A stretch of DNA of 64,000 nucleotides from Candidatus Omnitrophota bacterium (GCA_041650295.1 JBAZLM010000005.1:36592-100591); one strand, 5' to 3'; counted from the stretch's first letter, positions 3,463 through 57,300 are shown. Program-made: numbers and translations. Notes: generated by a model from the sequence alone, not told the origin.

Positions 3463-4051
3463 TTATTTATTAGGCTCTATACCTACGGCTTATCTTTTTG
3501 GTAAGTATTTAAAAGGTATTGATATTCGCAAATCCGGTTCAGGTAATGTGGGTGCCACTAACGCCTTACGGGTATTAGGGAAAAGAGCTGGGATAGTCGT
3601 TTTAATAATTGACATAGCAAAAGGTTTAGTTGTAGTTACCTTACTAGCAGATTTATTTGTCAATAAATCAGGATTATGGCAAGCACAAAACCTACGTATT
3701 ATCATGGGGTTATGTTGTATTTGCGGCCACATTTGGACCGTATTCCTACAGTTTAAGGGAGGCAAGGGGATTGCCACCTCATTTGGCGTTTTACTGGGTT
3801 TAGCCATGAAAATACCCGGTTTAAATATTGTGGTTGGCATTGTTATACTGGTCTGGATAATCGTTTTTATTTGTTTTCGTATGGTTTCACTGGCTTCAGT
3901 TTTAGCAGCACTTGCCTTACCCATTCTTTGCCTTCTCTTTAAGCAACCACTTTTACTTTCTCTAGTAAATTTGTTGCTTAGTGCTTTTGTAATTATGCGT
4001 CATAAAGCAAATCTTATCAGAATCTTTCAAGGTAAAGAATCTCGTCTATAA
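3431..4051 (+). CDS. plsY: glycerol-3-phosphate acyltransferase PlsY
   Basis: 206 aa. GSGNVGATNALR motif and polytopic membrane protein. Overlaps pgsA by 32 nt. Confidence 0.9.
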   Translation: MLLTIVALLVSYLLGSIPTAYLFGKYLKGIDIRKSGSGNVGATNALRVLGKRAGIVVLIIDIAKGLVVVTLLADLFVNKSGLWQAQNLRIIMGLCCICGHIWTVFLQFKGGKGIATSFGVLLGLAMKIPGLNIVVGIVILVWIIVFICFRMVSLASVLAALALPILCLLFKQPLLLSLVNLLLSAFVIMRHKANLIRIFQGKESRL

Positions 4052-16900: not shown

Positions 16901-17264
16901 TTTCCGCACGCTGCCGATCGTATCCCAAGCCATTAGCAACTTAAGCACTAATATTAATCGCAGCTCAATCAACAGCTTAGCCAAAATTGACTTAAACAAT
17001 GAGTGGCTTGATATTGAAAAGTTAATTAACTCAGGGATTGTTCCTTCAACTAATCGAATCAAAGAATACGTCCAGGCATCTTGTGCTCAAGATAAAACTA
17101 AAAACTGTAAAGATAAGGTTATTAATGGTATCGCTGATATCTTGCGCCAAGAAGAAGATCTCTGTCAGCGCACCAATCCTAAACTTTTAGATATATTAGT
17201 TGTCCTTCAGGCATCTAGAAATAGTAACGAATTGAATCAGGCGTTTCTCGGCAAAGCTATATAA
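10971..17264 (+). CDS. secreted 2097-aa multidomain protein; N-terminal domain paralogous to the giant ORF at 33332; contains large-NAD-GDH-like and UDP-sugar pyrophosphorylase-like domains
   Basis: Signal peptide ending ...SGFAQ. The first ~330 aa align with the start of the 33332 ORF (e.g. FRPLHLRYLQYNP/FRPLELRYFSYNS, WVNLRPDA, EADVQLKKDTA, IPTLTRPWIVPDEVIIRES, VIRSYFSGGM). Downstream domains are described in separate findings. Confidence 0.9.
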   Translation: MSRHKLPKVFYLLISFLLIFEQSGFAQVAAQLDISGKLAAFGNSITVERFRPLHLRYLQYNPQDNNFRLLIDKGTLKNPSNTDLERTSKELLKYFFIGLSLPNDKFWVNLRPDAADSIIDDKLAQTDIGRILLEADVQLKKDTANATSPETAQGKLYWDKLYAKAAELFGSQNITIPTLTRPWIVPDEVIIRESTDSAYVYKASLKVMLEQDYLKNSSTYNFKDDRLKALNEYSSQLIRELIIPNLTKEINTSKQYAPLRQVYYSLILAQWFKARNQTKNNPYTNLINSQNLTGFTSKTPYSKETYFNQYQKSFKDGEYNIHTPVTTPTGQVIRSYFSGGMAFGTISPIRTPANNSTEIAQPYEARITLPATEAQQNDNPVFFTPTQATEKINQLAITGDLHKLKAYAEKAIRGEVNQDEYLQGYAQELKIITDILSQTRPVDELNLLVNQFDVKIKQLDILRAITEIILQLENGKEGTSNPQRLKELREVFIKYPEISQLLINYFETRFNPEKTIDARGEEAGQIRLKILKLIEELDGLPEHNILAKAIGILIATIKTDYYIENRTELFLRIDPRAIVAYDDSGALIRTPPYALIWVHVPYGAFGAHSRYADVARGGLRSIRPERVNLWNKVLTECVALSFTQHKKHIDISEGGSKGAFVYQEGLNFVASALAYVDGLTNCMINDERIAVASGNITIDPLELGPDEGTAELVDVITALAWWKNLDTWRLLITGKSAVLGGISHMKNNLTTPAVMGNRVTSQGVMAHAFETTRYSQEKNITPKNKLSLSITGGLDGDVASGLVEIAIRNYNEDVAIRSLVDFSGVMFDPAGLDHSALLEMYANESQAKLFPKEKLGPGGFIAEARKGYAEENYTTLNTDSLKYLNTYALDPQVLEKLGLEAKYKEQAGLNNDQPLIMVLERDSQNRPSKIKVHDVYLRDAMFFLTKADMLITGGGVKDSINDQNWELFFDQEGRPTTPAIVHGANVFTTKNALINLEKKGIFIEPDEKANSVGVEISSNAELNINSIFKPAEITPAIMTAYFKQVLANSLENARWKFFALRIESEDRPEQSAATEVSPTMSMEITALADLISNMFSDIRSGSNPEAIDRLKNNFPELDALDSSYPTTLARLLDRMPQARLQATISKLIAKEIVLNLGMGTVAQLAKNLKVDQKEIVRLYLIEAEKLDIYEKVKAVIENPQNFTPSAQINKLRELRKELTNAIEHSKTALEKEINDAIAPFESGLAPTDKIHIKGLLRKFLIEKYSALKNELILGGTFISAAMLTKKQRQELLGAENYDQIAKDTTNEAAAKDTYVIFDSMDGGLGQSVERKNYLKIREDTESDFKARRDENNKIALGAKGTDLAYDIELNGEHFKASVAEIKLLHILSITQQFGKVTFQPLVNTDSAPSYEALLNSTYLLDKADKNKTDKRTYRQVLAEYGITLDKTNEFLYQANLPIIEYDTNKLTNKFPTPGGHGQWGVMLLSEAKDIELPKDGKTLIRAFYNGDGIANFPDAAILGWMAKKKIGIVMISTTKAGLDKKGGQIGIQILPDGSTRVQMLELAQAKKIGKAHEQLFAAIGLPGVDTVEGVDAQGNPYTYTNEAGAQYFNTNIALINYSVLSPIFKSILEIKTKDIDFEGEKLTGAELLERIVSPDLIENVKTREDGKNYTQLEGAIGSALLNCNAFFSATKDPRIKKILSDVIGDNKLLRIVNVDASQRTKFFTPIKSAFDYWFQNYSDYYKMDTQNWTLVDAREGEEPPQVDIISYKLDKDGKKVDDKFYSDVQNIINSFAKASTIELKSLNIEGQIKAENAILKGNIKIVSSFPGIIDLNSEASRKALNQSGTQPLILNNVSISIDDQGKITMDDTSVKPPSVGSTGEYEIMQEIILEAENDYSASRIAQAAQKIYDGLLSMEEDEFIVNLPTAIKILEATYNPKFAPMLEILNNLDKKDHSGLVEKLKKLNNDSSARTNAGGIDFRTLPIVSQAISNLSTNINRSSINSLAKIDLNNEWLDIEKLINSGIVPSTNRIKEYVQASCAQDKTKNCKDKVINGIADILRQEEDLCQRTNPKLLDILVVLQASRNSNELNQAFLGKAI
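12480..14100 (+). other. large NAD-specific glutamate dehydrogenase (Bac_GDH)-like domain inside the 2097-aa protein
   Basis: Motifs RFNPEKT, VARGGLRSIRPERV (cf. ARGGLRWSDR), EGGSKGAF (catalytic Lys region, cf. VGAKGGF), ITGGLDGDVASG (dinucleotide-binding GG-DGD-G), HGANVFTTKNALINLEKKGIFIEPDEKANSVGVEISS (GDH C-terminal GANxF...ANxGGV motif). Confidence 0.6.
14900..15850 (+). other. UDPGP-family (UTP-glucose-1-phosphate uridylyltransferase-like) domain inside the 2097-aa protein
   Basis: VIFDSMDGGLGQSVERKNY (cf. LNGGLGTSMG nucleotide-binding loop) and PTPGGHGQWGV (cf. PGHGD) about 160 aa downstream. Confidence 0.5.
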
Positions 17265-36300: not shown

Positions 36301-39300
36301 AGGGCCAATTAATTCTCCAGCGATTCCTCCTGCTCCTGTCTCTGCTGGACCGTTAGGGGCGGTGGTGGGTGGAATGGGTGGCCAAACTGCCAGGGCTAGT
36401 GCTTCTTCTGCGATTCATGAAAGAGAAAATTATTTAGCCAGAGCTGAAGAGATGGCTAAATTGATAGATCAATTAATAATTAGATCAAATAATAAAGTAA
36501 ATCCAATTTATACAGGAACAGATCCTCCTGCCGGTAGCATGGGTAGTTCACTCCCAGACTATATCCATGCGTTAATTATGGGAGAAAAAATGTTTGGTGC
36601 TTTAGTAGCAAATGTTTCAAGTAGTGAAGCAGATGCAGCAAGAAATGCAGTTGGAAACTTAAAATTTATGGCGAGCAGGCCAACAGTGGCTGCTCTCCAT
36701 AAATTCCTAAGCGTTGCCAATAGAGCCAAAGGTGCGGCGAAATTTAGCCAAATCCCAGGTTCTATTCGTGCGTATGGCTTCCGCGCCAAGTTTGTAAATG
36801 CCCTCAAGAAGTTAATCGTTATTCCTCAATTAAAAGATCTGGGTAACTCTGAATGGAATGAATTTAAAGGGAATAATCCTACACTTTTAGGTAGAATTTT
36901 TGGTTTTTGTGCAAATGATTTACGTCATTTATTTGGCAAGAACAAGAAATCATCCGATAAAATTATAATTCCGTCAGATGTCAGTCCGGATACTAGGTTG
37001 ATATTAGAACAGTTGCAAAGGATGAATGATAAAATCAATGATGTAAAAACAATAGCTGAAGCCGCAGCAGAAAAAGCCGAAGCCGCTAAGGATTTAAATG
37101 ATAAGTTAAAACACAGATTTGATGATAAATCAAAGTTGCCTTTTGATGATTGTGTTATCGGGATGTGCTATGATTTACTTTATGAAAAATTCTCACCGAA
37201 AAAAGTAGAAGCGCTGGTAAACGAGATTGATAAAGAATTTCGAAAAATAACTGGCATAAAAACCGGTAGTTATGAGGTCCCTAATTTAAATATTTTAGTT
37301 AATGTATTTAAGAATGTAACTGGCCTTGATTTAAAAATTCATAAAGTGAATAAGAATGCTCTTGTTGATTTAGTTCAAAAATATCCCGCTGAAATTGGTT
37401 TAATTGCTAAGCTTCAAAATGGTAAGCATCATGCTTTCACTGGCATGGGTTTAACTGATAAGGGAAATATTCGAATTATGCAAGAGAACTCTGGAGATTT
37501 TAAAGCGGCTCAAGAGATCTCGATTAATAATTTACCAGAAGAAGTGATAGTTGTTACACTTGCTACTTTAAAAGATCAGCAGCTTATTTTAAGTAAAGAG
37601 CTTACTGAAAAAGAGAGAAAAGAAATTAAGGAGATCGGTGGAATAACAGCTGGAGCAGAGGCTGGTACAGGGTCTAGTACAGCCACAGGGGCAGCTGCTG
37701 GAGTGGGATTAAATGGAGCAGCTAGTTCTAATAAAGGTAATGGTAGAGCTGATGGTGGTCAAATTAATCAATCAGTAGTAGGTCTTAGCGGTTTAAGCAT
37801 GACAGGAAATTTAGCGATAAACGTTCCGCAGGTTTCATTCTTTAATCATTTAGGGGCAAATGGTATTCGCGGATCACCGTCATTAACTACAAATCTGATT
37901 AATTTGTTCCGCACTAATTTTGCTACTATTAAAATAGTTGCTCCTAAACTAACTACAAATTTTGCTAAAATCCAAGCCTCTGTAAAATTAAATTACAATA
38001 AAGGTATTAACGCGGCTAGAACTCATTTCGTTAGATCTAGCGATAAGAATGTACGACTAAATAATCCCATCTCTAATACAGAAAAGAAGGCTAGCGCAAC
38101 TGATAATCAGCCGGCGATGGTTAACGTTAATGGCAAAAAAGTTATTGATGGTGACCTTTCGAATAGAACCATTAATCCTAATGACTTAAATAAAGTTGGA
38201 AAGACAAATGAAGAGATTTCCATAGCTACCTCTTCTGATTTAGCAAATAATAATATTCGTGCTCCTCCGACAGTTGCCGCTAAAATTACAAAAATCATTC
38301 GCTCAGTTATTGTTTTCCTCGCTACGGTTATTTCAATTATCTCTGTTACCACTCTGCCAGTTTTTGCGTTAAATAACAACTCTATTGTTACCGGACTTAA
38401 ATCAGCAAACATAATCATGTTTGTGATTGCTGCTGTGATAATTCCTACAAGGATTATTAAAACGACTATTGCTGAAAATAAAGCGGCAAGATATGGTTTT
38501 AGAACGATAGAATTTGATGCTACGGGTAAAAAGTATCTTAAATCGTTAAAAATTCGCGAAGTTAGAAATAATAATGAAAATGGTCAAGCACCGGTTGGGA
38601 TAGCAGTTGTTTTTGCAGCTATTGCGATTATTGGTGCATTATTCTGGCATTATGCGGCTTTTTCATTAGCCGATTTGATTGGCCTGGCTGGAATAGCAAT
38701 TTTTGGTATTGTAGCTATAGCTGCTTTTATCGGTAGCGTAGCAATGGAAAGTGTAGATAATAAAACTGCCGCAGATTTTGGCCGCAAAGTAATTAAGTTT
38801 GCCACGGTTGGTATTGTATTTTTTGGAGCACTTTATTTATTTGCTACTGCTAAAATTCCTGCTGCAGTAGAAGAGGCTATCCGTAACAGTTCATTACAGA
38901 GAGTATTTGATTTCTTAACTGTAAAAATAGGTGGCGGATTAACTGCACCTTTAGTTTTTGGAGCGGTATGGGGAAATTTAAATAATCAGGATCAGCCTTC
39001 TGCAAAACATCAGCCAAGCAATTCTTTACCGGCACAAAAAATTAATCATCATTATTTCAAAAAGATTATTGCTAAGTTATTTGGTTTAAATCATAAAGTA
39101 GCTCCTGCTAAGAAAATTTTACCTGTTTCCAACACCCAGATAAATAAAAATAAAATTTTAGTAAATGATCAACTAGGTCTTGGGGTAACTAATTTTGCCA
39201 AGGCTCCTCCGGTTAAGAGTCCGATTGTGTATTCAGCAAAAACAATTAACTCAACAGTTAACGGAGGAAAAAATGGTAAACTTACTAAAAATTCAAGAAT

Positions 39301-42300
39301 TCAAAGAAACAATGGCCGAATTAGACAATCAGTACAAAATCAGAAGATTGCAAGAGATGCGACAGGTAGCAGTGCTAGAAATGTTAAATCTGAAAAGCAT
39401 GCTAGCAGAAAAACCAGCAAATTAAATCGTTTTTACGCTTGGTTAAAACAGCCTAAAATAGCCAAGTGGGTTAAACTATTAATCGTAGCTAGTTTAATTG
39501 GAGTGGCAACCTTAGTTTTTGCTACCCCGGAGATGGCGGCCAGGGTAAGTAGTATAAATAATGAAGCCATAAGTAACGCAGCGTACTATTTAAGTCCAAA
39601 GGTATTTGTAAAACACGCTATATTTTTTAGTTTTCTGATCTGGGTCAACCGCAGGGGTTATATATTCTTTCCTACATTCGCTTTCTTGTTCGGGATGAAT
39701 CAAGCCAGTCATTTAAATCTAAGATTAATCGGTACACCTTTCTTTATGAATTGGTTCTATAATTGCCTAGATGTTGCTTTATATGCTAGCTTAATATTAG
39801 CTTTTATTGAGTTTTCTAAGGCTGCTAATAAAATAGAGCATTGGGGTAGAGAAACTATTGGTATTTGGCCGGTAAAGATTAAAACAATTGCCAAGGTTGC
39901 GTCTTTCTTTTTCGTAGCTTTAACCGTGCAAGAATTAATGAGCGCAATGTCGTTTACCCGTTTTATGTTAGAAACTTTTTATACTGCGCAAAAGCTCACC
40001 TTTGATCCTTACGATATCCTTGCGTATTTAGGAGGAGGTGTAGCATTTTTCGTCTTAACTAGCATAATGTCAATTTCTAGGCGCCAAGCATTTATTCGAA
40101 AAAATCAGTTAAAGAAAAACAGTGTTAGAATGCAAAAAGATCAAAATAAGGATAATAAAAATAATTTTTTAACAGAAAAGAGAGCGATTCCTGAAGATAA
40201 TAAAACTACTACTTTACATAGTTATGTGTCGGTAGCGGTAATACCTTCAATTGTATTATCGTTAAGTTTTTTTGACGTGGCAGCTAATATCAGCGCTGCT
40301 TTTGTTGCAGTTACGATTGTTGGTGTTATTGGTTGGGGTATTTATCGGTTGGGTAAACTTATTCATAAAATCCTTATATTAAAAGCTAATTCTAAACAGG
40401 ATTTAAATAATGCTTTTGACGATAAAAATGACCCAGCCCGTCCTTTACCTGGTCAGCCGATGCCTACGAGAGAAGAAGCAAACACCGAAGTAGCTAGACA
40501 TGATTTAACGCAATTTGAAACAATTTCCGAAGATCGAGCGGAAGTAAAATTAGCTATAGAATATTTACGTTCGATTAATGAAAATCAATTAGCTCATTAC
40601 TTAGAATATTTAGCTAAAGCCGGATTAATTCGTGCTGGACCATTAGCCGGCTTCTTAGCTACTACTTATATTTTAGATCAAGATAATGATTTTATTCTCC
40701 TGTCCAATCTCTACCCTGCAGAGAATAGCGTTTCAGATTATGCCGCAAGTTTAGTTCATGAGATCGGTGCCATTTTTAAATTCAATCATCAAGAAAATCA
40801 GACACGAGAAGATAATTTCTATACTTGGTTAGCGGCCAAAGTACTTGAGCCGAATTTTGGCGCTGTAGTAAATACTCGTCTTACAACCGAGGCCGCTTCT
40901 GATAATTTTGTTGCCGATAAGAAAGCGCTTCCTTATAATTTCTTCTTCTCAAAATCGAATCGTTCTCGTGGCAATATTTTACCTGCCACTAAACCTTATC
41001 CTGATGCTAAACAATTACACCGCAATCATTCCCCAAAATATCTTTACAAAGATATCAAAGGCAAAGTTAAAGTGTTCTCTATTAAAGACCAGTCGATTCC
41101 TAAATCACAACACGCAGCGGTTCAAGAGATCAATGAAGAAGAGTTAGTGCAATTAGCATTAACCGGCGGATGGAAGGTAGTCGTAGCTAAAGATTATGAT
41201 CAGATGACTTATGCTTCTTTATATTTAGTGATTAAACTTATGCATCTGGCGCAAAGAGAATTTGCTATGGGGTTGGCTACCGGCGGCACCACAGAGTCAC
41301 TGCGCAAGGCGATGGGGTTACTCGATTATAGCCGCAAGATCTTAGATGGTCTTTCTCTTCCTGGGGATAAGGTAAATAAATGGTCTACCTTAGATAACTA
41401 TTATTGGAATAAGCTTGCCGAGATGATTGATGTATTGCTTTCTAGTTACACTCAGGAGCAGGGGTATATGCTTTTAGGGAATATCTATGGTAAAGATAGA
41501 ATAAACTATGATTATTTTGTTACGCCTTATGATAAAACCGACTTAAGTTTAGAGCAGGTAGCAGAAAATTTCCGCCTGCGCATGCGGGTATTTTTAAATG
41601 AGACTTATAGAATATTGGTGCAGTTGCACGGCATTGGTTCAGACGGCCATGATGGTTTTAACGAGATCTATCCATCAATGCCTCTTTTACGTCCAGATTA
41701 TGATTCTGAGCTTTTAGATATTACCAAAGTTCAGAATATCGGTCATTTCTTACCCAAAGGTTTTCATCCTTTCTTTTTAAGATTTATGGCGGATAATAAA
41801 ATTTTTTATATGTCTAGACTCATCGATGTTTTAAATCGTATGGGTTTTGAAAGAATCGCCGGGTATTATCCAGAGTCTAAATACCAATTTGCTTCAGAAA
41901 AAGAGTATCTAGATGAGGTAAAATATCTATTAAAATATTTTAAACTTACTCCGGCTCAGTCGATTACTCAGGGCTCAGGAGATATTCTTGAAAGGACCAA
42001 TAATCCGGATTCTTTAAATCTCTACATGAGTTCAGGAGCGCATAAAGCTACTCCGACTTATGATGCGGTTGAAAAAGAACCGTCTTTATACAATACTGCT
42101 TCTGCTATGCAGCTACAGGCTAATTCTATACTTATTGTAACGCTAGATGCCGCAGTAAAACTTGATCAAAGTAAATGTTTCTTCTTTGTTCCTCAGGCTT
42201 ATAATCCGCTTTTAGTTAGTGCCAAAGCCATTGAAGAGACTTGGCAAGAGACTGCTGAAGGCAGAAGGATCCATGCATTATTAGAAGAGAAGCATGGCAA

Positions 42301-45300
42301 GCATTCCTATCCGGCCACTATGCCAATAACCAATAAAGCAGATAAAGCTCCTACTCCTAGACAATTTAATAAAATTCTGCAGGCTCTTGGTGGAGAGCAA
42401 GCTTTAGCCAGCAAAGGAATAACTTTAAATATAAATAATGTGGTAATTAGCCCAGCATTAGAGGCTCCGGCGGAAGTCAGAGCAGGAGTATTATACGTTA
42501 ATCCTAATATCTTACGTGGTCCTCCGAAACAATTACGCGTAATCTTTGAAGGACATGAACTACTCCACTTAATTAATCCTACCGCTACTGAACAAAGAGT
42601 ACAGATATCTACAATTAATTACTTAGTAAACCATCATCGTCTTAATGCCCACATTAAATTTTTAAATAAGAATAAATTTGGTTTGAGAGCAGATATTACA
42701 TGGTTAACTACTTTAAATTTAAAATCTAAAGAAACAGCTGCTTCTAAAGATATTAAGTTTGAAAGGCTAGCCAAAGAAGATCTGCGATCTATGGCTAAAT
42801 ATTTAAGTCCTATTCTTGCTTTTGGTATCGTATTGTGTGTTGTGCCAGAAACTATTCTCGGGGCTTTAATGGCAATTCCTTTTATCGGTCTAGCAGTTTG
42901 GCGGTTAGTATTTCCTACTAATTGGCGCTTATGGACAGTAGCTACACTTAATTGCACAGATCGTCATTATCAAATTGCTTATAATAAACTCATTAAAACT
43001 AAAAATAAAAGAACAATTAAAGCATTAATTAAATGTTTAGAGGGAAAAAATTTAAATACTTGTTTAATTGCAATTAATATTCTTGGCAAAATTTATTCTG
43101 TAAAAACAAAAGCTAATAAATTTGATCAATTAGTAGTTTTATCTTTTATTGGCTTGGCACATAAGCTGTTAAATCCAAATGAAGAGATGTTTGCCTATTC
43201 TCGTTTTAGTATCTTTAAAACTATTATAAATACTTTATCTGTTTGGGTAGATACAGAAAAAACAATATTTGAAAAATCTAGTAATGAATATTTAGCAATT
43301 TATGAATTTTTTAGTAAATTCTTAGCTTCTAATGAGACAATACAAAATTCTGGATTTGAATTTTTAGCTTTACGGGAATTCTGTAAAAAATTTCCGGATC
43401 AGACGCCAGCTCATTGTGTTAGTAATTTAGTTAATTACGTTCTCGTTGGCAGTCCAACTGATCGTTCTGCTAATGGCGTCAGTACTGAAGAGGTGGAAAA
43501 GGCCATCGCCAAATTTGGTGGAATAGAAGAAATCTTAAAGCGAGAAATTACTAAATATACTGACTATATTAATATAATTTTTGGAATTAATATAGTAGAG
43601 CAAAAATTAAAGATTTCTTCAGAGATTATAAATTGTTTAATAGCTGCTTGTGGGGTACATTTTGCGCAAGCTCCTCCAGAATGGCATATCGGTGCTGCTA
43701 TTGGAATTTGTAAGCGTGAAGGTAAAGAAGAGCCAGTAATTATTATTACACAAGCAACTTCTGCCGATGCTATTGCTCATGAAATTTGCGCGATCTTAAT
43801 CCCTGGCTTAACACATGAAGAAAATTTAATAGTAAGTAAAAGAGTTAATTGTTCATTAGCTGCTTATGACTCTACCAATGCATTAGACAATTCTTTAAAA
43901 GGACGAGTAGAAAAAGTCTCAGGGGCTTTGGCTAGACTCTATAATCTGGATTCTCGTGAATTGCGCAATGTGCTTAATTTGGCTCCGGCTTGGGAGAAAG
44001 TTTTTAATGAAGAGATTCTTCCGGAGATTATTGATGGATATCTGCAGTATTTATCCTCTCCAAATGATAAAAAGCCTGCAGCGGTAGTTTTAATTACCGG
44101 AGAAGGCGGAATCGGTAAAACTACTGTAGCTTTGTCCTTTGATGAGATTGCGGAAGCGGCTTTAAAAAGAATTCGTGATGAAAAAAAATTATCAAGACAA
44201 TCAAATTTAGTAAGAGAGATTGCTTTCGATGATTATATTTTACAAAAAAACGATCGCCAAATTGATCCGTTAACTGGAGTTGCTACTGAAGATCCTTTTA
44301 AAAAATTCGAGTATGATCGTTTCTTAAAAGATATGCTAGCTTTGAGGCAAGGACAAACTATTTATAAGCCAATTTATGATTTCAATCTGCGTGGTCGACT
44401 TAAATTTGCTCTAAATCAAGAAAATCAGATAGTTTTAATGGTGGGTAATGAAGAAATTTTAGTTGGGGTTAATGTAGAAACCCAAGAGCCGTATTTCTCT
44501 TATCAAAATAAGCAGCAAGATTCATTAATGTTGGGTACTAATGAAATTAAAGTTGAGTTAAAAATATATCGTAATACTGAAAATAATATTGTTATTAATT
44601 TGCGAGACAGCGAGCATGTTTTTCGATTTGATGAAAAAGGTAAAGTTAATGTTAATGTTGGGGATGTTACACAAGTTTTAGAAAAAGGTAATTTAGTTGA
44701 AGCTTTGGAGATGATTGTTCCGCAGGGAAAAGTTTATATCGTTGAAGGTATTTTGGCTTTACAAAGCGATAAATTAAACGCTAAGTGTTTAACGGTTTAT
44801 ATTACAGGAGGTTTTGAGGCACGACTTTTACGTATGCTTAGCCGTTCGATGGGTGAAAGTGGAAGAAAGAACACGATTCAGGAGTTAGTTGAGCAACGTT
44901 TAAGATTAATAAAACTTGAAGAAATGCCTTACATTTGGCCAGTGAAAAAGAAGGCCCGTTGGGTAGTTACTAGTTTTAGTCGTTCAGAAGCTGTTTATAT
45001 GCTTTATATTCGTGGTCAACTAAATTGTCCTAATAAGAGAATAGTGCAAATTTTAAAAAGCTTAGGAGTTGATTGTCATGCACTAGTTGATGCATTGAAG
45101 AATATTTATCAGAATGAGGTGGCGGCTCGCTTAAGCGGTGGGCAGGGAATTCCTAGTGCTATTGAAGGAACAGCCTTTCATGTTTTTATGGATAATTGTG
45201 GTTTAGTTATAAAAGTGCCCCGCGCTGAATTTTTAAAGGAATTTGAAACAAATTTTATTAAGTTTTATAATACAGTGCTTAAAACTAGATTAGGTGGATT

Positions 45301-48300
45301 GATTGTTCCAGGAACAATTATTGATTTAAATAAGCTAGGTGTGGATATTAGCAGAGTAGTTGACGGTGATTTTTATAAATTTGAAAAGGTTCTTATTCAA
45401 AATAAAGTAGTAACGCTTGGTCAAAGATTAAATGATCTCTTAAAGGTTCAAGATATAGAGGGAGTAAAGAAATTAATTGATCAGTATTTTATTTTGCAGC
45501 AAGCGCTTTGGCGAAGGGGTGTTTGGGACAATAAGCCTAAGTTTATGGAGAAATATGGTTTTATTCCTTTAGATGGAGTAGAACAATTAGTGGTGGTTGG
45601 GGTTGATGGCTTAAAAGATAGGATAGAAGAATTTGATCCTACTTTATATATGAATAAAGATTTGCGTCCGCAAAATCTGCCGGCAGAATTAGAAGATTAT
45701 TATGATCTGAAGGTTAAGGAGATGATTTTTAGTAAAAATGACTTTTTAACTTATTTTGCCAGTGGATTGAAAGAGTGTCAAATGGCTCCAGATATTTCGG
45801 ATATTGAAATTGGTCGTAAACAAATGGATCATATTGTCACTACATTAAGGCAAGCGATGTTACAAAAATATCGTAAATTTTTTGGTTGTCTTAATTATAG
45901 TAGGGATAATCCGCTAATTTATTGGATAAAGTTTTATGTGGATACAGTTTATGCTAAAGGGGTAGCGCAGCAAGTTTTGTTAAATGCTTTTTATGAACAA
46001 GTTATTGAAGATCCCCAGATGTTAGATGAAGTCTCTAAAACTACTAGCAAACTTCAGGAAAAACTTAAAGAATTTAATCATAACGGTCTAGTCAGTGATT
46101 CCGGGCTTTTAGTGATGGCTGAAGAAATGCTTTATATTAAGAATGAATTTAATCATCAGAAAACGGATTCAACTGTTGGCGCTTTAGTGGGTGCTCAAAC
46201 TAAGACAACTGAAATTACCAATTATAGTGTTGAATTAGTATCTAAGCCAAAAATTACATCTGAAGAAATTGAAAAAATTCTATCAACTATGCGCGGTATG
46301 GCGGATGCGATGGCAGTTTTATGTACCGGTATTGAAGGATCTACTTATAAAGATGTTCCCGGTTTGCTTATTGATATTCAGAAAATGGAAGAACTTTTTG
46401 GGATTATTGCTGAGCGTGTAAAATCTACGGATAAAAATTTTGCTATTCATCCGGAGCTAGTTAATATTCGCGTGGCGGATGATGCTTTGGAAACTGTTCC
46501 TTCTTTAGAGGCATTAGAGACAGATCTCAAAGTTGGTATTTATCCGATTGCGGCTAATCCGATACATCTATCGCATATATTAGTTGGAATCGAAGCGATT
46601 GCTATTGGCAAGTGTGACGTGGTTTATTTTGATGTTCAATCCGGTGGGTATGTGCTTAAACCGATTTTAACCGCGACTGAAAAATATCGATACGAATTAA
46701 GTATGATACTTTTAGCTTTACTTGCTCCGTTCTTTGGTTTTGCGATAAATATTTCTAAAGACGGCGAAACGGATATTTTTAGAATTCAGAAGCTTAACCT
46801 TAATCAGAAAAGGGTTAAGTATGTTTATATTGTAGGTAGTGATCATTATCATCGGTGGGTAGAAAAAGACGCTTCGGATAATTTAATTCGGGGAACAGAA
46901 GAATATAGGCAGTATGTTTTAGTGCACAACGGCAAAGAGCCGACTCCGGATACAATTCAGAAGATGGAAGATAAATTAGTTGAATTTGGGGTGGATGCTT
47001 CGGAACTGGCCATATTATTTGTGGAGCGCATCGGTGAAGAAGCGCAAGAAACAATTGCTAGTTTATTAGATATCAGCATGCTTCCTCCGGTCGGGATGGC
47101 TTCTTCTACGGCGATTCGTAATGCTTTCAAGGCAATTGAAAGAATGACTAAGGATGAAGGCAATTTAAGCGCAGTGGAATTAGCAGAATTGCAAAAAGAT
47201 TTATTGAAAGGGTTAATTTATCTGCCGTATGTTAGCTACCAGTATATTATCGACCATTTGGATTATTTAGATATGCTGGTGCATCCTGAGGAATATGATG
47301 GGAGCAAGCCGGCTGATCGTGCGGCTAATGGCGCAAGTGCTAAAAGAGTTGATGCGGCTATTAATGATTTTGGTGGAATAAATGAAATTTTAAAGAATGA
47401 AATTAAGGATATTCTTTATGATAGAAATATTATGTTAGGTATTAATAAGGCGGCCTATAGCATGGATCAGGATCCTACGGCAATATATAGCGCGTTGATT
47501 GCGCGAGGAGTACATTTTGCTCAGGCACCTCCGAATTGGAAAATTGGCTCAGCCATTGGTATCTTAGATAAAGATGGAAAAATAGAATTGGTAGTTATCC
47601 TCTCTAAAGATGCAAATCCTGAAGAAGTTGCCCATGAAATCCGCGCTGTATTAATTTCAAGCTTAACTCACCAAGAAAATCAGTTATTAAGATCTAGTGA
47701 CAAAGTAGTTAAGAATATGTTTACTCATTCGATTGCTTTTCGTGGCTTGTTAACTCCCGAAGAAGACGCTGCCGTTGAATATTTTGATGACCCGATTAGC
47801 CCAGCTAAAAAAGGAGCAGTTCCCCTAAGCACACTTAAAGAGTATTCAGCAGCTGAAGAAATTATTTTTAACATCAAAGATATTGAATTAAAGAATCATG
47901 GTGCGCTGATACTTAATGAAGATTACCTGAAAAAATTTCATATTTATTTCTATCAGACTACTAGTAGTCCATCGCCTAATGCCAGCGTTGATTTTCAATA
48001 TATGAATATTTTTGTTTTTGCTAAATCTGCAGAAGAACTCAACGCACAGATTATTGCTAAAATATTAGTGCATGAATTAGTTGAATATGTTTTGGTTGAA
48101 CATTACTTAACAAATAATCAGTCAGCTAATTTTTCTGTAGCGCATCAGCAAGCCCTAGCAACAGTTAAGGATCTTGATGCCTTTATTTTAGCGAATAAGA
48201 AAACGAATAATTCTAGTGAAGCGCAATCACTATCTGATAAATTGATAGGTCAAAATAATGGCGCGGTAGTAAATACCTGTGGTAAAGATTTTCCTGTGAT

Positions 48301-51300
48301 TGCTAAATATTTTGCGGATGATCCGAGAAAAACATATTTGGCCTTGCGTAATTGGCAGAAAGAATTTAAGCAGCTTTTAGGGCAGGATAAAACATTAGAG
48401 CAGCTCACTACTTTTAAAGACGATCAGCATCCGGCCGGCACAGAGTACTTCTTATTAACTGATGAGCAAGGCAAATTTTTAAAGGACATTCAGGGTAATT
48501 ATATCATCCGTCCGCGCGATCTTTGCCATCAGGACGGGTCCTATCATCGCAGCGTTTTGATCGCCGCTATTGATTATCAGGGTAAATTTTTAAGGCAACA
48601 GCGTTCACAAACCAAGAGAATGTTTAAGCATTATTATGATCTTTCAGCCTGCGGGCATACTGCTTTGGATGCGGATTTGACAGGGGCGGCCCAAAGAGAG
48701 CTGGAAGAGGAGATATTCAATGATGAACATAAGATTGATTTAGCACGCTTAATTCAAATTACCCCGGATGCTTCGGTGCAGCATGATTTTATTTATACTG
48801 ATGAAAATGGTAGAAAATATATTGATAATGAGCGGTCGACGCTTTTTGTTTATTTTATGACCGAGGAAGAAAAGTTAAAGATTAAGTATCAGGTATCGGA
48901 GGTTGATCCTAAGGGCTGTAAATGGCTATGGTTTAAAAAAGAGGCGAATCGATATCGGGCTCATCCGGATAAATATGCAGCTGGCTTTAAAAGAGTGGTA
49001 GATAACCAGGATTTATATATAAAATTAACTAGTGTTGCAACGAGTGTTTATGGTGAAAATTATGCAGCAATTGCTGAAAAATTTGATGCCGAAACTTTTA
49101 AAGCTTTATATAAATTGACACATGAAGATCTCGACAATAAGGCCATGCAAGAAATTATGAATATAATTATAAGTAATTATCAGGAGCAAGGAATGATAGA
49201 CCGACTTTTTGGGATTGATTTATTAAATCCAGTAATGCAGCCGCTCGATTTTAATGATTTTAAGCGCCAGGAAGAAAACACTAGGTTTGTAGCTGACCGA
49301 GTGTTTCAGCTCACGGATTCTCATGATAAGTTATCAGTATTTAGTAGAGATAGATTACTTGATATGATTTGGGATGCCTTAAGGATAATTTATCTTTGGA
49401 TGCCCTTGTCTATATTTAAAAGATTTTATAACAATCAAGCGGTAGTGTCTGGACATGCTATCATGCATACTTTGGATGTTTTGGATGAGTGTTTTAGAAT
49501 TCAGAATGAACAGAAATATTTTTTATGGGAAGAAGATATCAAAAATTTAATTTTTGCCTCCTTGACTCATGATTTAAGTTATCTTATATATCAAGAAGGA
49601 CACTATCATTTTTCTTCAATTTGGGCAAGTGCTATTCTGGAGAAGAATAAAAAATATAATAAACATGCAGGAGACTGGACTTTTGGGACGCATAATAATA
49701 GATATGATGAAATTAAAGTGGGGGATATTATTAAGTTACATGATAAGGCAAAAGAGTACAATCTATACGATAATAATCAAGCAGCGGCGATTCTTCGGGA
49801 TGCTGATAAGTTAACTGCTGATTTAGATCCGCAGAGAATATATGATGCTAAGTGGTCAAATATATTGGAAAAGAACGGTTATACGCTAGAAAGGCCGGTA
49901 CCTTTTACAGAAATATTTTTTAATCCTCAAGAAGATCTTGATCATCGGGTAAAGGTGATAATCGATAATCTTCCGTATGATAGAAGTGATGCGGTTACAG
50001 ATCTTTTCCGTAAGATTATATACGATCGCAAGCAAGGTGGTGGATATTTGACCCGAGGGGGATCAGATATAATAAGCACTGCGGCTAATGATTTAAGTGT
50101 ATTGGTTGATTTTATTATAGATAAAGCGCAGGATTTGGAAGAAAAATATGGGTTTGGATTAGAAAGAATAGAACAAATTAAAGGAATTTTTTATGAACTT
50201 TATCATGTTATTTTTAATCAATGTTTTACTGAATCCCTGATTAATATAAATACAACTCGGGAAAATGAAATTTATTCACAAGAATTTAATTTGTTTAAAA
50301 GCAATCTAATCAACCGTATTTTAGAATTTAATCGAAGAATGCAAGAACCGTTGTTCTATGATAATGATGAAGATATTAATATGATTTTTTACGTATGGGA
50401 GTCTCAAGAGAGTCTTAACGCCGTTAAGTTTCTTGGGTCAATGGCAAAGGAAGGTTATTTAAACCGTGGCGAGATTGAATTAATTAAGGAGAATATAAAA
50501 ATTGCTTATGGACCAAACAAGCAAGTTCCTTCTGATTTTTTCCCGCTATACGATCAAATTTTTGATTTGTTTACTGTTGATTATGATACTGTTTTAGGTT
50601 ATTTTAACGATGTTGAACAAAATTTAGATACTACTTCAGGCCTTCGTAGTCAATTACAGGATTATTTAAATATTTCAGGGCAAGATAATAATCCTTTAGA
50701 CCGCTCAGCTAGAGGTAAGAGTAAAAGAAAAGTTAATGCGGCTATTAATGAATTTGGCGGGATAGAAAAAATACTGCAAGAGGGGACGTTGGATGTTGGC
50801 CTTTTCCAAAAGATTAATTCAGGTATTGATTGTACAGCAAAAAGTTTGGGAAAGACCGGTGAAGAGATTGAAAGATTATTGATGTCTAGGGGTGTGCATT
50901 TTGCGCAGGCGCCTCCGGGATGGGAAATCGGTCCAGCGATTGGTATTTTGAATCGCGATGAGAAAAAAGAGCTGGTAATTATTGTCCCCAAAGATGTGGA
51001 CATCGAAGATCTTGCCCATGAAATCCGCGCGGCAATTCTCCCCGGTTTAACCCATCAAGAAAATTTAAATATACAGGCAGTTAAAGAAATCCAACTCGAG
51101 CCGGTTTTTATTTCAGCAAATAAGCAAGCGCTTTCTTCTGAAGTAGCTTCAAATAAAGATTTTTTTGTACTGGTATTTAATTGCGGCAGCTCTTCAATTA
51201 AATACCAGTTTATTAATATGCAGGATGAATCAGTGGTGAAAAAAGGGACGATTAATATGATTGGCGAAAGCGATGGCCCGGCGAATTATTTAGAAGTAAT

Positions 51301-54300
51301 TAAGAATATTTTGGCGGATTTGTCTAGCTCCGGGTTGACTCCTTCGGCGATCGGTCATCGTGTAGTGCATGGTGGGGATAAATTTGAGGCATCAGTTTTA
51401 ATTAATGCCGATGTTAAGGCGGCGATTAAGGATTGTTTTAAGCTTGCCCCGCTGCATAATCCTGCGCATCTTATGGGCATCGAGGCTTGTGAAGAGCTGC
51501 TCCCGGGCATTCCGCAGGTTGCAGTTTTTGATACCGCTTTTCATAGCACTTTGCCTGCAGAAGCTTATTTATATGCTCTTCCTAAAGAGTATTACACTAA
51601 GTTTGGTATTAGGAAATATGGTTTTCATGGCACCAGCTATCGGTATGTCGCTAGTGCTGCGGCCAAACAATTAGGCATTCAGCCGGAAGATTTGAATGCG
51701 GTGATCTGCCATTTGGGTAATGGATGTTCAGTGGCAAAAATAAAAGCGGGAAAATCCGTGGATACGAGCATGGGGCTTACTCCTTTAGAGGGATTAGCCA
51801 TGGGCACGCGCTCCGGGGATATTGATGCCTCTGTGTTGGAGTTTATCGCTAATGAAACCGGAAAGAATATCGAAGAGCTGATGGCAATGTTAAATAAGGA
51901 TAGCGGATTATTAGGCATTTCCGGAGTAAGTAATAATATGATTAAATTACATGAAGCATTGGGAATAATTTCTCCGCGCCGGCCAAAGGAGATTAAAGAT
52001 GGAATTTCTAAAGTTGAGTTTTGGGCGGCGCAAGATGAAGATTTAATCAAAAAATATACTGCTTTAGCGCTTAAGGTTTTTACTTATCGCGTCGCCGGTT
52101 ATATCGGCAAGTATTATTGCGGCTTGCCGGCGGAGAGCGCTAAAATTATCTTTACGGCGGGCATTGGTGAGAATGCCGGTATGATTCGGCAAATGATTTT
52201 AGATCAGCTTCCGGGAATTGCGAATTTAGAGCAGCGGGTAATGGTGATTCCTACGGATGAGGAGCTGATGATTGCTCGAGATACGCAGGAGATTATTGAA
52301 AATATCCGGAATAATTCTATTTTGGCGCACAAGGGTTTTTTTGTTAAAGAGCAAGTTGGAGCACTGGTTAAAGTTTTAGGTTCTAGTACAACAAATGATA
52401 GTCAATTGGATGTAGATAATTTTATTATGAATATTTCGCAGTATGGCGCAATGACTACGGGTAAATGGTTAGGTCACCGGGAAAAAGTCGCGCAGGTAGT
52501 CAATGGTGAATTTTATAATGTTGTTCCGGTTACTATGCAGTTAGCACCTACTACAATTTGCCAATATAATTGTCCTACTTGTAGTTACGGTCGATCAAAA
52601 GAGGAGATCAGGAGTGCACTAAAATCAAAGACTGCCAATAAAAAAGATTTTTTTATGAGCATGGAAGATATGAAATTATATTTGGATCGCATTAAAGAAG
52701 CAGGAATAAAAGGTGTTATCTTCACTGGAGGTGGCGAACCGTTATTGAATCCTTACACGATAGATGGACTGGAGTATGCTAAGTCTTTAGGTTTACAGGT
52801 AGCCATGTTTACGGATGGCTACTTACTTACTCCGGAAACTGCTCAACGGATTATGAAAATTGGTTTAGTATTTTTACGCATTAGTTTTAACGCAGGAACG
52901 CCGGTTACCTATAAGCATTTTCACGGCACGACGGAAGATGCTTTTTATCGTGCAATTAAAAATATAGAGAATATAGCTGTGGCTAAAGAAATAACAAAGA
53001 GCCAAACCTCATTTGGGATTGGCGTTATCATTACTCCGTTAAATATTAAGGATCTTTTACATATTGCCAAGATTGTTAAGTCAATTGAAGAGCGCCATCC
53101 GGGAATGATTGAATTTATAGCTTATCGGCCGACCGTTCGTTATGAGCGTGGCTGTCAAAGAACCTTATTTACAAAGCAGGCGGTTGAATATATGCGCCAG
53201 ACTCCGGAATTAAGCCGTTATTATCAGGCGTATTATGATTTTATTTACAATGGAAAACAGTTCCCGGCTTCATTATTTCAAGAAGCGGTTACGATATTAG
53301 ATAACGAAGTTAAGCCATATTTGGAAAGTGGAGAATATCCGGTTAAGCTATTAACACCAAAAGGACGTATTGAAGGAGTTTACCAGACCGAAAAGCCTTT
53401 TTCGAAATGCTTAGCTTGTCCTTGGTGTAGTTTTATCGGACCGGAAGGCAATGTCTATCATTGTGTCGAGTTAGCGGTTGATTCTAGAACGATTTATGGC
53501 AACCTTAAAAAACAAACATTTAAAGAAATATGGGAAAGTCAGCAGAGAAAAGATGTCATTGAGCGGGTTAATGTTGAAGGGATGAAGTCTTTCTGTCCTC
53601 CAGTATGTTTATTATTTGAATATAATAAAATATTTGAAGATATTCAGCAGGGGTTAACTAATCCGGTGGTTCGGGAAAGATTGATTAAGGAAATTGAACG
53701 ATTTAGAGTTAGATTTGAACAGGAAGATTTGCCCATAGTCGGTAAAGGAGTAGATTTTATGTACCCGGCGAGGATGCCAGTAGCTAATGAGGAAGATCGG
53801 GAGCCGAGTAAGGCGGAATTAAGAATAATCCGCCGAGCCTTTGGCGGCAAGAGATATTATGAGAAAATTACTGGTAAAAAATTCAAGGATTTGGTAATTG
53901 TCCTTTATGCAGATTCAGATGTGGTGACCGAAGTTACTCCATCCGGAGCATTGTTAATTAACCCGAATCTTTTGCGCGGCCCGCCGAAACAGTTAAAAAT
54001 AATCTTCCAAAATCATGAATTATTTCATTTGCAGAATCCGAATATTGCTGAAGAGTTAGCCCACGCTTATACTATTCAATATTTATTAAAAAAAGGTTTA
54101 TTACAACGCCACCTATCCTTCTTAAAAAATAATAAAATTGGTTTAAAGCCGAATCGAGATTGGTTGTTAGAGTTAGAATTAGAAGATGTATTAATAAAAG
54201 TGATATCTTCTAAAGCTTCTCCTGCGCAGCAGGTAGCGATGATTGTTGAAAGAGCAGTTAATTTATTTAATCCAGATATAGTTTTTCAATGTATAGATGC

Positions 54301-57300
54301 CAGCCGTTGGATTAATTCTGGTTTGGATAAATTAGGTATCGTAAATTCACGCCGGGTAATTCATCTTAGCAAGGACATTACTCGAGAGCCGAAGATTGGC
54401 GAAAAAACCGAATATCACGATATTATTGAAGCGGTTTTTGAGGGCCAAATCTGGGTCATTGATACCCAAGCAAGACAATTTACGCAACAAACTAATAGTA
54501 GAATTCATGGTTTGTCTTTGGAGTTTGCTAATAAGTATATTTACAGCGCCAAAGATTATTATTCTATGCTTAAAGCGTTCTGGCTTGCTATGTCGGTTTT
54601 CCAAATTTCAGAAGCTTTGATTGATTCCACTGCTACCTCCCAAGGAATTGCGCCAGATTTAAAGAAAGCTTACTCAATTAAAAGTTCACGCATAAATTTT
54701 AAAAATTTATTAAGATTTTTAAGGGGAGCTGTTCAGCATAAAATAGGCCAAGGTATTATTTTGCATAACTTTGTGCCGTTTCCGATATTAGCTTTGGCAG
54801 TTTGGCCGGCAATAGCCGATTTTGTTGCAGCGCATCCGATATTAATGGGAGTAGGTATTTTATTAACTGGTGTTTGTTTAGCTTTGGTTTTATGGCGTAA
54901 ATTATTTCCGGTGAATTGGTATTCGCGAAGATTGAAAAGTTCGTTGGCTGAAGTTCGTGTTGAGGCAGCTATTGCTTTAGGAAAAACTAAAAATCATAAA
55001 GCCGTTAAGCCACTATTGGTGACGATCTATGATCATCATCTTTTAGTGCGCGACGCGGCGGTTGGCGCTTTGGGTCAGCTTAAAGATAGTCAAGCCATTG
55101 AGCCATTAATTGAATTATTTAGGATTTCAGATGATTATCGTAAAACGCTTATCATTAAAGCTCTTAGTGAAATAAGCGGTGAAAAAGTGTCAGTGGATAG
55201 CCTTGGCGCGGTGGTGGGTAGTAAGTTCGGTGAGCAGGAAGCAATTAAGATGAGTCAGGCGCTGCCTCTAGAACCAGTCGCTTCACCGCTTAGATTTGGC
55301 ACCAGTGGCTGGCGCAGTAGTAGATATACAGATTTTGTCATGCCCAATGTTCGACGTATATTAGAAGGAATTGCTTTGTATCACGATAGGGTGCTTAAGA
55401 AAGGAACATTTTTAATTGGTTATGATCCTAGAGCCGAAAATCAAAGTTTTGCTAAAGAAGCAGCGAGTATCTTTGCGGCACATGGTATTAAAACGCAAAT
55501 TATAATTAGTGATCCAACTCCTACTCCGGTTTTAGGATACTTAGCTGGTTCTAATGATGAGATTGCTGGAATTATCATTTTTTCCGCTAGCCATAACCCT
55601 GCCGAATATAATGGTATAAAATTTTATCAATATCACGGCGGTTCGGCGGATGTTGAAACTACGGATGTTATTTCAGAATTAGCCAATGCCGCCATAACCT
55701 ATAGGATAATGGATTATCAACAAGCTAAAGTAGAAGGCTTAATTACTGAAATTACTTTAGGTCAAGTAATTCAAAAATATGTTTTTGAATATATTATTCC
55801 TAGAGTTAAAGAAATCGGCGCTTGGAATGATATCGTAAATTATATCAAAAATAATCCGGAATTTGTGTTGGTGGTTGATCCGATGCAGGGTGCGGCGGTA
55901 GAATACTTAAAAGCAATTTATTTGCAGCTAGCCAAAGAAGCCGGTCGGGACTTCTTTATATTAATTCATACCAATAATCATGATCCAGAATTTTTAGAAG
56001 TAAATAGCGCGCCTAATCCGACATTGCCAGAAAATATAACTGAACTAATTAGTAAGGTATCCTTCGGCAAACAGGTTTTTGGTTTAGCGGTAGACGGGGA
56101 TGCGGATAGATTTAGAGTGATTGATTTTGGTGGCAAAGTTATTGAGGCTTCAGATGTAATTGCTATTTTAGCGCATTTTTTAAATACAGAGATTGGCTTG
56201 ACTGGTGTGATTGGAAAAAGTGTAGCCACATCTAATTTTGTCAATGCTATTGCTAAATATTTAAAATTAGATTTAGTGGAAGTTGGGGTAGGGTTTAAGA
56301 ATTTTGTGAATCAAGTAGTTAAAAATAAGGTTAATTTCTTAGTGGGCGGAGAAGAATCGGCCCATGTTTGTTTAGGGCTGTTGAATCAGTCTTGGGACGA
56401 TGGCATTGCTATAGGGCTATTGTGTTTTTGGGTAGTTGCGCGTACCGGCAAAACTATTTCTGGGTATAAAACTAGAATTGAAAAAGAAGTGGGGAAACAT
56501 TTTGACTCTGAAGTAATTACAATTTATGGCCAAGACGATTCGATTAAGGATGTAATTACTAATTTAATTCAAAAGACTGCAGAGGAACTAGAATCCGGAG
56601 TTCCGGCTTTAAAGACGACAATTGTAAAACAGGTCAGCAAGTTACAAAATAAGAAGGTAAAGGAATTAATTACTTTAGATGGCTTAAAAATTGTTTTTGC
56701 ATCCGACGATTGGATCCTTTTGCGACCTTCGGGAACTGAGCCAGCAGTTAGGCTTTATGTAGAAGTCACAGATTCATCTAAATTTGCTAGCTTGGTTAAG
56801 CTAGGTAGGGCTTTATTGGGAGTAGAAGAAGAGATTAGTCAAAATTTAAACCCGATTGCTTACCGCGGTTCTTTAACAGATGAAGAAAATTTGATTGCCC
56901 AAAGGTTAGCTAAAACAGCCGATCCTCTGACAGAAGGAGCAAGAGTGGCAGGGAGCTTAAGAGGGTATAAATCTGCAACTAGCATAATTTGCAATAATAT
57001 TAAAAATATTCATCTAGATGCTTATGGTAAGTTAGAATTAGAAGCTATTTTGAATAAATTTTCAATTTATTTTTATCAAACTGCTAATCGTTCGCCACCT
57101 AATGCGGTAACCGATGCTTTCAACCATCGTATTATCATTTTTGCTAATACAGAAGAGGAGCTCACCCATAAACTTTTGGTAAAAATTTTAATTCATGAAC
57201 TTGTCGAATATGAAATTCTCAATGACCCTCAGGTAACCACCGCTATTGCCCATCATCAAGCAGAGTTAGTTATAGATAGCTTAGATGATGTGGCGATTTT

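Follow-up and report, generated by a model that had tools for sequence, protein, structure and literature searches.

We analysed a 64,000-nucleotide stretch of DNA from a Candidatus Omnitrophota bacterium (GCA_041650295.1 JBAZLM010000005.1:36592-100591; hereafter the window, with positions counted from its first nucleotide) that carries a giant open reading frame (ORF) in which an HExxH-bearing module occurs twice. The giant frame, in frame +2, starts with an ATG at 33332 and encodes a protein with a signal-peptide-like N-terminus (MKTKNSKAKRILSLVLCFGLILQQMGFAQ). An original prediction, made from the sequence alone, had described an internal repeat family in this protein, each copy consisting of an HExxH motif, a pair of transmembrane helices and HEAT-like repeats, and had likened it to membrane-embedded M48/M56-type metalloprotease modules. 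The frame and the two modules are located as follows.

33332-64000, + strand: giant ORF, at least 10,223 amino acids (aa), no stop before the window end
42290-42724, + strand: putative zincin module copy 1 (aa 2987-3131), from self-BLASTP, family alignment, AlphaFold2 (AF2) and Foldseek
53744-54184, + strand: putative zincin module copy 2 (aa 6805-6951), from self-BLASTP and family alignment

Comparison of the giant protein with itself, by BLASTP after cutting it into chunks, aligned aa 2993-3124 with aa 6811-6944, 38.8% of the 134 aligned residues being identical (E = 3e-28), which confirms the proposed two-copy repeat. A weaker match (aa 3176-3254 versus 7174-7250; 30% identity, E = 0.002) took in the second transmembrane helix together with the first part of the HEAT region. 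The whole 10,223 aa contain just two HExxH motifs, located at homologous positions (aa 3075 and aa 6895). The predicted shared strings around it were present in both copies, as VNPNILRGPPKQLRVIFEGHELLHLINP in copy 1, with HELLH at 42554-42568, and as INPNLLRGPPKQLKIIFQNHELFHLQNP in copy 2, with HELFH at 54014-54028. The copies lie where they had been placed, but their starts had to be moved, the domains beginning about 110-150 nucleotides further upstream (42290 and 53744). Copy 1 has an N-terminal YPATMP, HELLH at aa 3075-3079 and the conserved residues Glu3087 (42590-42592) and His3107 (42650-42652); the corresponding landmarks in copy 2 are YPARMP, HELFH at aa 6895-6899, Glu6907 (54050-54052) and His6927 (54110-54112). 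Since the window copies are only 38% identical to each other, compared with 56% and 49% to their best counterparts in other genomes, we regard them as old paralogs, each apparently catalytically intact.

Extent and conserved residues of the module family

Pfam searches with both window copies returned nothing credible at E ≤ 10, and Pfam and NCBIfam gave no credible match to 39 alignment members of the module family. A single relative, a fragment carrying SPASM and the module, came out of a word-indexed search that covered 5.8 billion proteins. When 1.84 billion cluster representatives were scanned exhaustively with HMMER, 52 matched (45 with E < 1e-10); these were almost without exception long proteins or fragments, and none had more than three copies. 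Among 185,579 species genomes, 33 loci carry the module. They lie in metagenome-assembled genomes labelled Candidatus Omnitrophota, automatically labelled Planctomycetales or Planctomycetia, or named just 'bacterium'; those with non-Omnitrophota labels are mislabelled genomes of the Planctomycetes-Verrucomicrobia-Chlamydiae (PVC) group. At all 33 loci the module is embedded in a very long open frame, which in 32 of them was open over the whole fetched stretch (up to 20.4 kb and 6,800 aa) and contained up to four full copies. The short database matches to the module were on short contigs, and a free-standing module gene outside giant ORFs was never found, either among the 1.84 billion representatives or at the 33 genome loci. 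At one locus (L023), a lone in-frame stop at 6010-6012, lying between two zincin modules, is all that breaks the giant frame; it may reflect a sequencing error or true gene fission, or it may be read through. As judged from these searches, the module constitutes a new, unannotated and narrow family of about 145 aa that is restricted to giant multi-enzyme proteins of Omnitrophota.

Residue conservation was counted over 81 unique full-length copies and is given in profile numbering. HExxH is intact in 77 copies (95%), which marks it as the genuine, conserved zincin-type motif that had been proposed; the four copies that have lost it represent rare pseudo-enzyme variants. Downstream, where a third ligand (Glu or His) was to be sought, there are two conserved candidates. 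Position 101, six to eight residues past the second His, is Glu in 96% of copies, with two further copies carrying Asp, and position 121, 28 residues past the second His, is His in 96%, with two copies carrying Glu. Because the His at +7 in the peptidase selecase aligns within one residue of the family Glu, we consider E101 the likely third zinc ligand and H121 an alternative ligand or a catalytic helper. The N-terminal YPAxxP is similarly conserved (P8 in 99% and A9 in 96%), and G34 of 'AFGG', T108, L125 and N128 are further near-invariant positions.

Predicted fold and relation to known proteases

Structure prediction with AF2 from three sequences gave a predicted local distance difference test score (pLDDT) of 43, so the 39-sequence alignment was used instead, resulting in a pLDDT of 95.8 and a predicted template-modelling score (pTM) of 0.90. 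The model runs from an extended N-terminal segment, containing YPAxxP and packing confidently on the domain, through two short helices and three strands to helix 79-95, in which the HExxH residues H89, E90 and H93 are located. Three helices follow, of which one begins exactly at E101, the next contains H121 and the last closes the domain. A Foldseek search of the PDB with this model returned minigluzincins as its six best matches, with only noise below them: selecase (4QHI, 4QHF, 4QHG) at probabilities of 0.91-0.99 and template-modelling scores of 0.51-0.59 on the target, and abylysin (4JIU) at a probability of 0.47 and a score of 0.51. Complementarily, the family profile was compared with all PDB sequences and ranked selecase MJ1213 first (E = 0.003; range 0.003-0.03), in an alignment spanning the strand and the HExxH helix ('...tiYINkNiL...irfil-HELLHL'), and hhalign gave a probability of 83.5% for the family against a 66-aa selecase fragment. 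The minigluzincins (selecase, abylysin and jannalysin) have a fold of about 100 aa made of a three-stranded sheet, a backing helix, an active-site helix and a C-terminal helical subdomain, and the model agrees with it in the order of the secondary-structure elements.

The minigluzincins selecase (Methanocaldococcus jannaschii MJ1213, 4QHF-4QHJ) and abylysin/proabylysin (Pyrococcus abyssi, 4JIU) are the only meaningful matches of the module by fold and profile. They share with it the order of sheet, 'xLYVNxNxL' strand-loop, HExxH helix and a helix starting at the position of the third ligand, and they too are small soluble domains; selecase is an experimentally characterised metallopeptidase. 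Lopez-Pelegrin and colleagues reportedly introduced minigluzincins in 2013 as a minimal soluble version of the M48/M56 catalytic domains, and their third zinc ligand is said in that work to be a His. The module differs by an N-terminal extension of about 35 residues with the conserved YPAxxP and PDR...FGG, and by the Glu that 96% of its copies provisionally align to the selecase His, where H121 could still be the ligand. Moreover, minigluzincins are free-standing archaeal proteins of about 100 aa, whereas the module is found only embedded, and often repeated, in bacterial giants. Taken together, sequence and model make it very probable that the module is a zincin domain of the minigluzincin-like kind with an intact catalytic signature.

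By comparison, the families named in the original prediction or considered along with it found little correspondence. M48 (PF01435) did not match the window copies at E ≤ 10 and matched one of the 39 family members at E = 0.19, M56 (BlaR1/MecR1, PF05569) matched neither the window copies at E ≤ 10 nor the 39 members, and CPBP/Abi (PF02517) gave no Pfam match, the hairpin helices lacking its EExxxR and FxxxH motifs. Membership of the module in M48, M56 or CPBP was rejected, as no Pfam or NCBIfam match was significant. The M48 proteases HtpX, Ste24 and Oma1 and the M56 proteins BlaR1/MecR1 do resemble it in having an HExxH gluzincin-type site on a minigluzincin-like core and, in the window, in having transmembrane helices nearby. 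In M48, however, such helices flank or insert into the catalytic domain, and in M56 that domain lies between them and is combined with a sensor domain. The module is neither flanked nor interrupted by transmembrane helices in this way, and most members of its family are free of any transmembrane association. Thus the protease idea broadly holds, in the form of a minigluzincin-like zincin, while membrane embedding and M48/M56/CPBP membership do not, given the missing family matches and transmembrane coupling.

Membrane hairpins, neighbouring domains and further repeats

The hydrophobic hairpins and repeats that follow the modules in the window are these.

42800-42925, + strand: transmembrane hairpin 1, YLSPILAFGIVLCVV, PET, ILGALMAIPFIGLAVWRLVF, ending in WRLVFPTNW (42899-42925)
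42926-43093, + strand: degenerate HEAT-like stretch after hairpin 1, with a weak alignment to its HEAT counterpart in copy 2
54185-54769, + strand: insert of about 195 aa between module copy 2 and hairpin 2, without counterpart in copy 1 and without a family match in Pfam
54770-54919, + strand: transmembrane hairpin 2, FVPFPILALAVWPAIADFVAA, HP, ILMGVGILLTGVCLALVLWRKLF, ending in WRKLFPVNW (54893-54919)
54932-55165, + strand: HEAT_2/HEAT_PBS repeats (aa 7201-7278) from Pfam, directly after hairpin 2

A transmembrane helix pair thus follows each copy, as predicted, with hydrophobic spans at 42800-42913 and 54770-54907. The 'AVWR' that had been called conserved is exact in copy 1 and reads 'VLWR' in copy 2. 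HEAT-like repeats had likewise been claimed for both copies; they were recovered after copy 2 (PF13646, E = 6e-13; PF03130, E = 1e-8), but after copy 1 no Pfam HEAT match appeared even at E ≤ 10, a weak pairwise resemblance to the copy 2 region being all that remains.

Across the family, the hairpin does not travel with the module. The gap between them is about 25 aa in copy 1 versus about 195 aa in copy 2. Of the homologous copies, 9 of 41 have a hydrophobic segment in the 400 aa that follow them and 8 of 32 have one in the 400 aa that precede them, neither side being favoured; most homologs have no transmembrane segment within 400-600 aa. Elsewhere, the unit of hairpin, W(R/K)xxFPxxW and HEAT repeats follows a module by 247 aa (locus L007, motif at aa ~649), lies about 2,200 aa from a module (L019, motif at aa ~1145) or stands upstream of one (L028). 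On these grounds the hairpin was rejected as a family-wide part of the zincin module. The variable gap, the homologs mostly without a nearby transmembrane segment and the hairpin-HEAT units on their own argue for separate cassettes, so that, as read from these sequences, the supposed single repeat family breaks down into two independent cassettes, which this protein happens to place side by side on two occasions. The W(R/K)xxFPxxW motif with immediately following HEAT/PBS repeats is itself kept between giants of different Omnitrophota genomes, as a 'membrane staple + HEAT' cassette.

Both window hairpins have K/R-rich flanks and loops of two or three residues between the helices (three in hairpin 1). 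By the positive-inside rule, these charges and short loops place both flanks of each hairpin in the cytoplasm, and the zincin module is probably soluble and facing the cytoplasm. If so, each hairpin would staple the chain to the inner membrane face, and the module and the HEAT repeats would both lie in the cytoplasm. In published TMHMM-based work, HEAT repeats were assigned to the cell exterior; the charges seen here suggest that they are cytoplasmic.

Domain annotation by Pfam tiling showed that the modules are set into a chain of enzyme domains.

aa ~3586-3702 of the giant ORF, + strand: PRK/uridine-kinase-like domain
aa ~5071-5206 of the giant ORF, + strand: NUDIX domain
aa ~5946-6210 of the giant ORF, + strand: acetate kinase
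52547-53560, + strand: radical SAM (S-adenosylmethionine; aa 6406-6550) and SPASM (aa 6696-6743) domains, directly 5' of module copy 2
aa 7321-7821 of the giant ORF, + strand: PGM/PMM domains I-IV
within the giant ORF, + strand: GT5 glycogen synthase, and a weak phosphorylase match

In the window the neighbours of the module are radical SAM/SPASM, with copy 2 beginning about 60 aa past the SPASM domain, and, further off, the PRK-like and PGM domains. Ten foreign module neighbourhoods contained guanylate kinase (starting 5 aa past the module), cytidylyltransferase, DUF218, phosphoribosyltransferase, phosphorylase, APH-type kinase, GGDEF, SIS and HEAT domains according to Pfam. These neighbours are nucleotide-, SAM- or sugar-phosphate-dependent enzymes, which would be expected to work in the cytoplasm. 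The 350-aa flanks of different copies, upstream or downstream, were related in just 6 of 903 and 12 of 1,035 pairs; a fixed neighbouring domain was rejected, the flanks being mutually unrelated, and the module appears from its contexts to be a shuffled, mobile cassette between enzymes. At least three giants, namely the window protein (52547-54184), P0001 and L019 (upstream of aa 3330), keep radical SAM, SPASM and zincin module in this order, and the 346 aa upstream of copy 2 are 36% identical to those of L019. As SPASM-type radical SAM enzymes usually modify peptides, it is conceivable that radical SAM/SPASM and zincin domains form a local peptide-maturation pair of modifier and peptidase.

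The giant protein contains further repeats. A second internal family has three copies with 43-51% identity, at 43433-43870, 47306-47722 and 50696-51109 (aa ~3367-3512, 4659-4797 and 5789-5926), and the consensus DRSANGxS...V.AAI..FGGIEEILK ... GVHFAQAPPxWKIGAAIGIL ... EPVIIIPKDV..E.VAHEIRAxLIPxLTHxENL; L007 and L021 also carry it, immediately ahead of zincin modules. The family matched no PDB sequence, and no relation was shown for this 'FGG...AHEIxA...THxEN' repeat as a divergent zincin paralog (hhalign probability 5.6%, with only the 'DR...FGG' helix aligning); its conserved H, HE and TH.EN residues could form a metal site. A third repeat pair (47657-48178 and 56786-57286; aa 4776-4949 and 7819-7985; 37% identity, E = 3e-27) follows directly after the second copy of the three-copy family in one case and directly after the PGM/PMM domain in the other. 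About nine predicted transmembrane segments cluster at 38276-40340 (aa ~1649-2334), within the N-terminal third of the giant, which is unannotated apart from them.

Outside the giant ORF, the genes on its 5' side are ordinary bacterial ones, including LepA, GatA/GatB, an S41 protease, RACo and TilS. A separate 2,097-aa ORF at 10971-17264 (+ strand) fuses glutamate dehydrogenase domains (ELFV_dehydrog, Bac_GDH_CD, GDH_HM3) to a UDP-glucose pyrophosphorylase-like domain, so multi-enzyme fusion in this genome is not limited to the giant gene.

By its origin, length and domain content the host protein is a member of the giant multi-enzyme ('Archaeovorin'-type) class of Omnitrophota. The longest known ORFs are from Omnitrophota, reaching about 85,000-147,000 aa, and Archaeovorins, or multi-enzyme metabolic giants, were described by West-Roberts et al. 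2023 (10.1101/2023.11.21.568195) and in a 2026 preprint (10.64898/2026.06.07.730766). The window protein resembles those of both reports in its Omnitrophota origin, its length of more than 10,000 aa, its HEAT, GT5, radical SAM, NUDIX and PGM/PMM domains and its transmembrane segments. It differs in the module, as neither preprint mentions an HExxH or zinc metalloprotease module: 'HExxH', 'metalloprotease' and 'zinc' have no occurrence in the 2023 text and 'HExxH' has none in the 2026 text, and both rely on Pfam, which is blind to this domain.

Candidate roles of the module

In the best explanation as a whole, which we advance tentatively and at somewhat less than an even chance, the modules are soluble minigluzincin-fold zinc-metallopeptidase cassettes that cut the giant chain from the cytoplasmic side. 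Each copy would be a soluble domain of about 145 aa in which a small beta-sheet supports the HExxH helix and a following helix headed by the near-invariant Glu. As active endopeptidases, the cassettes would cleave the giant either close to their own module (in cis) or at linkers (in trans), and the cuts would release or regulate the adjoining enzyme blocks, as do the embedded proteases of viral polyproteins and MARTX toxins, which lie between functional blocks of the precursor. Self-processing of the giant, argued by this analogy, is a possible role that we would not yet call probable. It is nevertheless the most economical reading, because the module combines a catalytic signature, restriction to giant ORFs, repetition between enzyme blocks and a presumed cytoplasmic location. 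The MARTX cysteine protease domain, viral polyprotein proteases and the C39 and S8 domains of Omnitrophota giants are likewise proteases inside very long multi-module polypeptides; they are, however, of the cysteine or serine class and of another fold, whereas the module would be a zinc metalloenzyme that is internal, repeated and not N-terminal, and whose cleavage activity is only proposed. Whether Omnitrophota giants are cleaved is a stated open question, for which only C39 and S8 domains near the termini have been proposed (10.1101/2023.11.21.568195).

Several observations weigh against this explanation. The module resembles minigluzincins only remotely (20-24% identity; Foldseek E of 0.016-0.06), and all three lines of similarity lean on one core, the strand and the HExxH helix. 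Catalysis is not universally required, as four of the 81 copies lack HExxH. The topology was derived with the positive-inside rule from a crude hydropathy scan; a lone predicted transmembrane segment at aa 4456-4474 (nucleotide ~46697), if real, would put the two module copies on opposite sides of the membrane. A search for YPAxxP as a dispersed cleavage motif failed the prediction, with four sites outside modules against three expected, and no gene fissions were seen at module borders. As YPAxxP does not recur outside modules, it would act once per module if it is a cleavage site or a latency plug. The furthest-reaching version, in which the zincin cassettes are the missing processing enzymes, YPAxxP is such a plug or site and the ORFs of 10,000-150,000 aa are polyproteins matured into membrane-tethered enzyme sets, is speculative and, in our estimate, rather unlikely.

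Of the rival explanations, one keeps the modules as active zinc proteases but lets them act in trans on prey or host surface proteins, on cell-wall peptides or, in quality control, on cellular proteins. Selecase is itself a trans-acting and highly selective peptidase, and the giant has no dispersed YPAxxP cleavage motif. A passage of the 2023 preprint, citing Kizina et al. 2022, also reports that giants were proposed to serve predation and cell-wall degradation and that their abundance rises on prey contact (10.1101/2023.11.21.568195), which would suit such targets. Yet the ATP-, GTP-, SAM- and phosphoribosyl pyrophosphate-dependent neighbours, like the hairpin charges, point to the cytoplasm and against an extracellular, prey-facing protease, and never being free-standing outside giant ORFs is unusual for a general trans-acting protease; we regard this rival as unlikely. 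A zincin-like fold could also serve without peptidase activity, as another metal-dependent hydrolase, a peptide-binding or latency module, or an oligomerisation or scaffold element for the enzyme array. Such a role would fit the retention of the four copies without HExxH and the ability of selecase to interconvert between a monomer and inactive oligomers, but H, E, H, E and H have each been kept in 95-96% of copies, ancient paralogs included, which speaks for a maintained catalytic metal site and not for a scaffold, and we consider this reading improbable.

The membrane-embedded M48/M56-type unit of the original prediction, in which the HExxH domain and the transmembrane hairpin together cut at the membrane, is the weakest of the three live rivals. 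It draws on the hairpin that follows both window copies and on minigluzincins being reportedly the published soluble model of the M48/M56 catalytic domains. The lack of a significant PF01435 or PF05569 match, the unequal gaps to the hairpin and the independence of the hairpin-HEAT unit count against it, and the absence of family-wide transmembrane coupling largely refutes it, leaving it very unlikely. Chance resemblance, that is, coincidental low-complexity or compositional HExxH matches, has nothing in its favour except the fact that HExxH turns up in large proteomes generally. It is refuted, to the point of a negligible probability, by the strength of the self-match, by the homologous positions of the two HExxH motifs and by the invariant residues that 52 homologous clusters have in common.

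Invisible to Pfam and NCBIfam, specific to giants, repeated between enzyme blocks and equipped with a complete zincin signature, the module is a concrete candidate for an enzyme that may cut Omnitrophota giants into working pieces. Its 145-aa size and confident in silico fold offer a testable handle on whether bacterial giants are polyproteins, and the minigluzincin scaffold, earlier known from a few free-standing archaeal proteins, would gain a bacterial, embedded branch.

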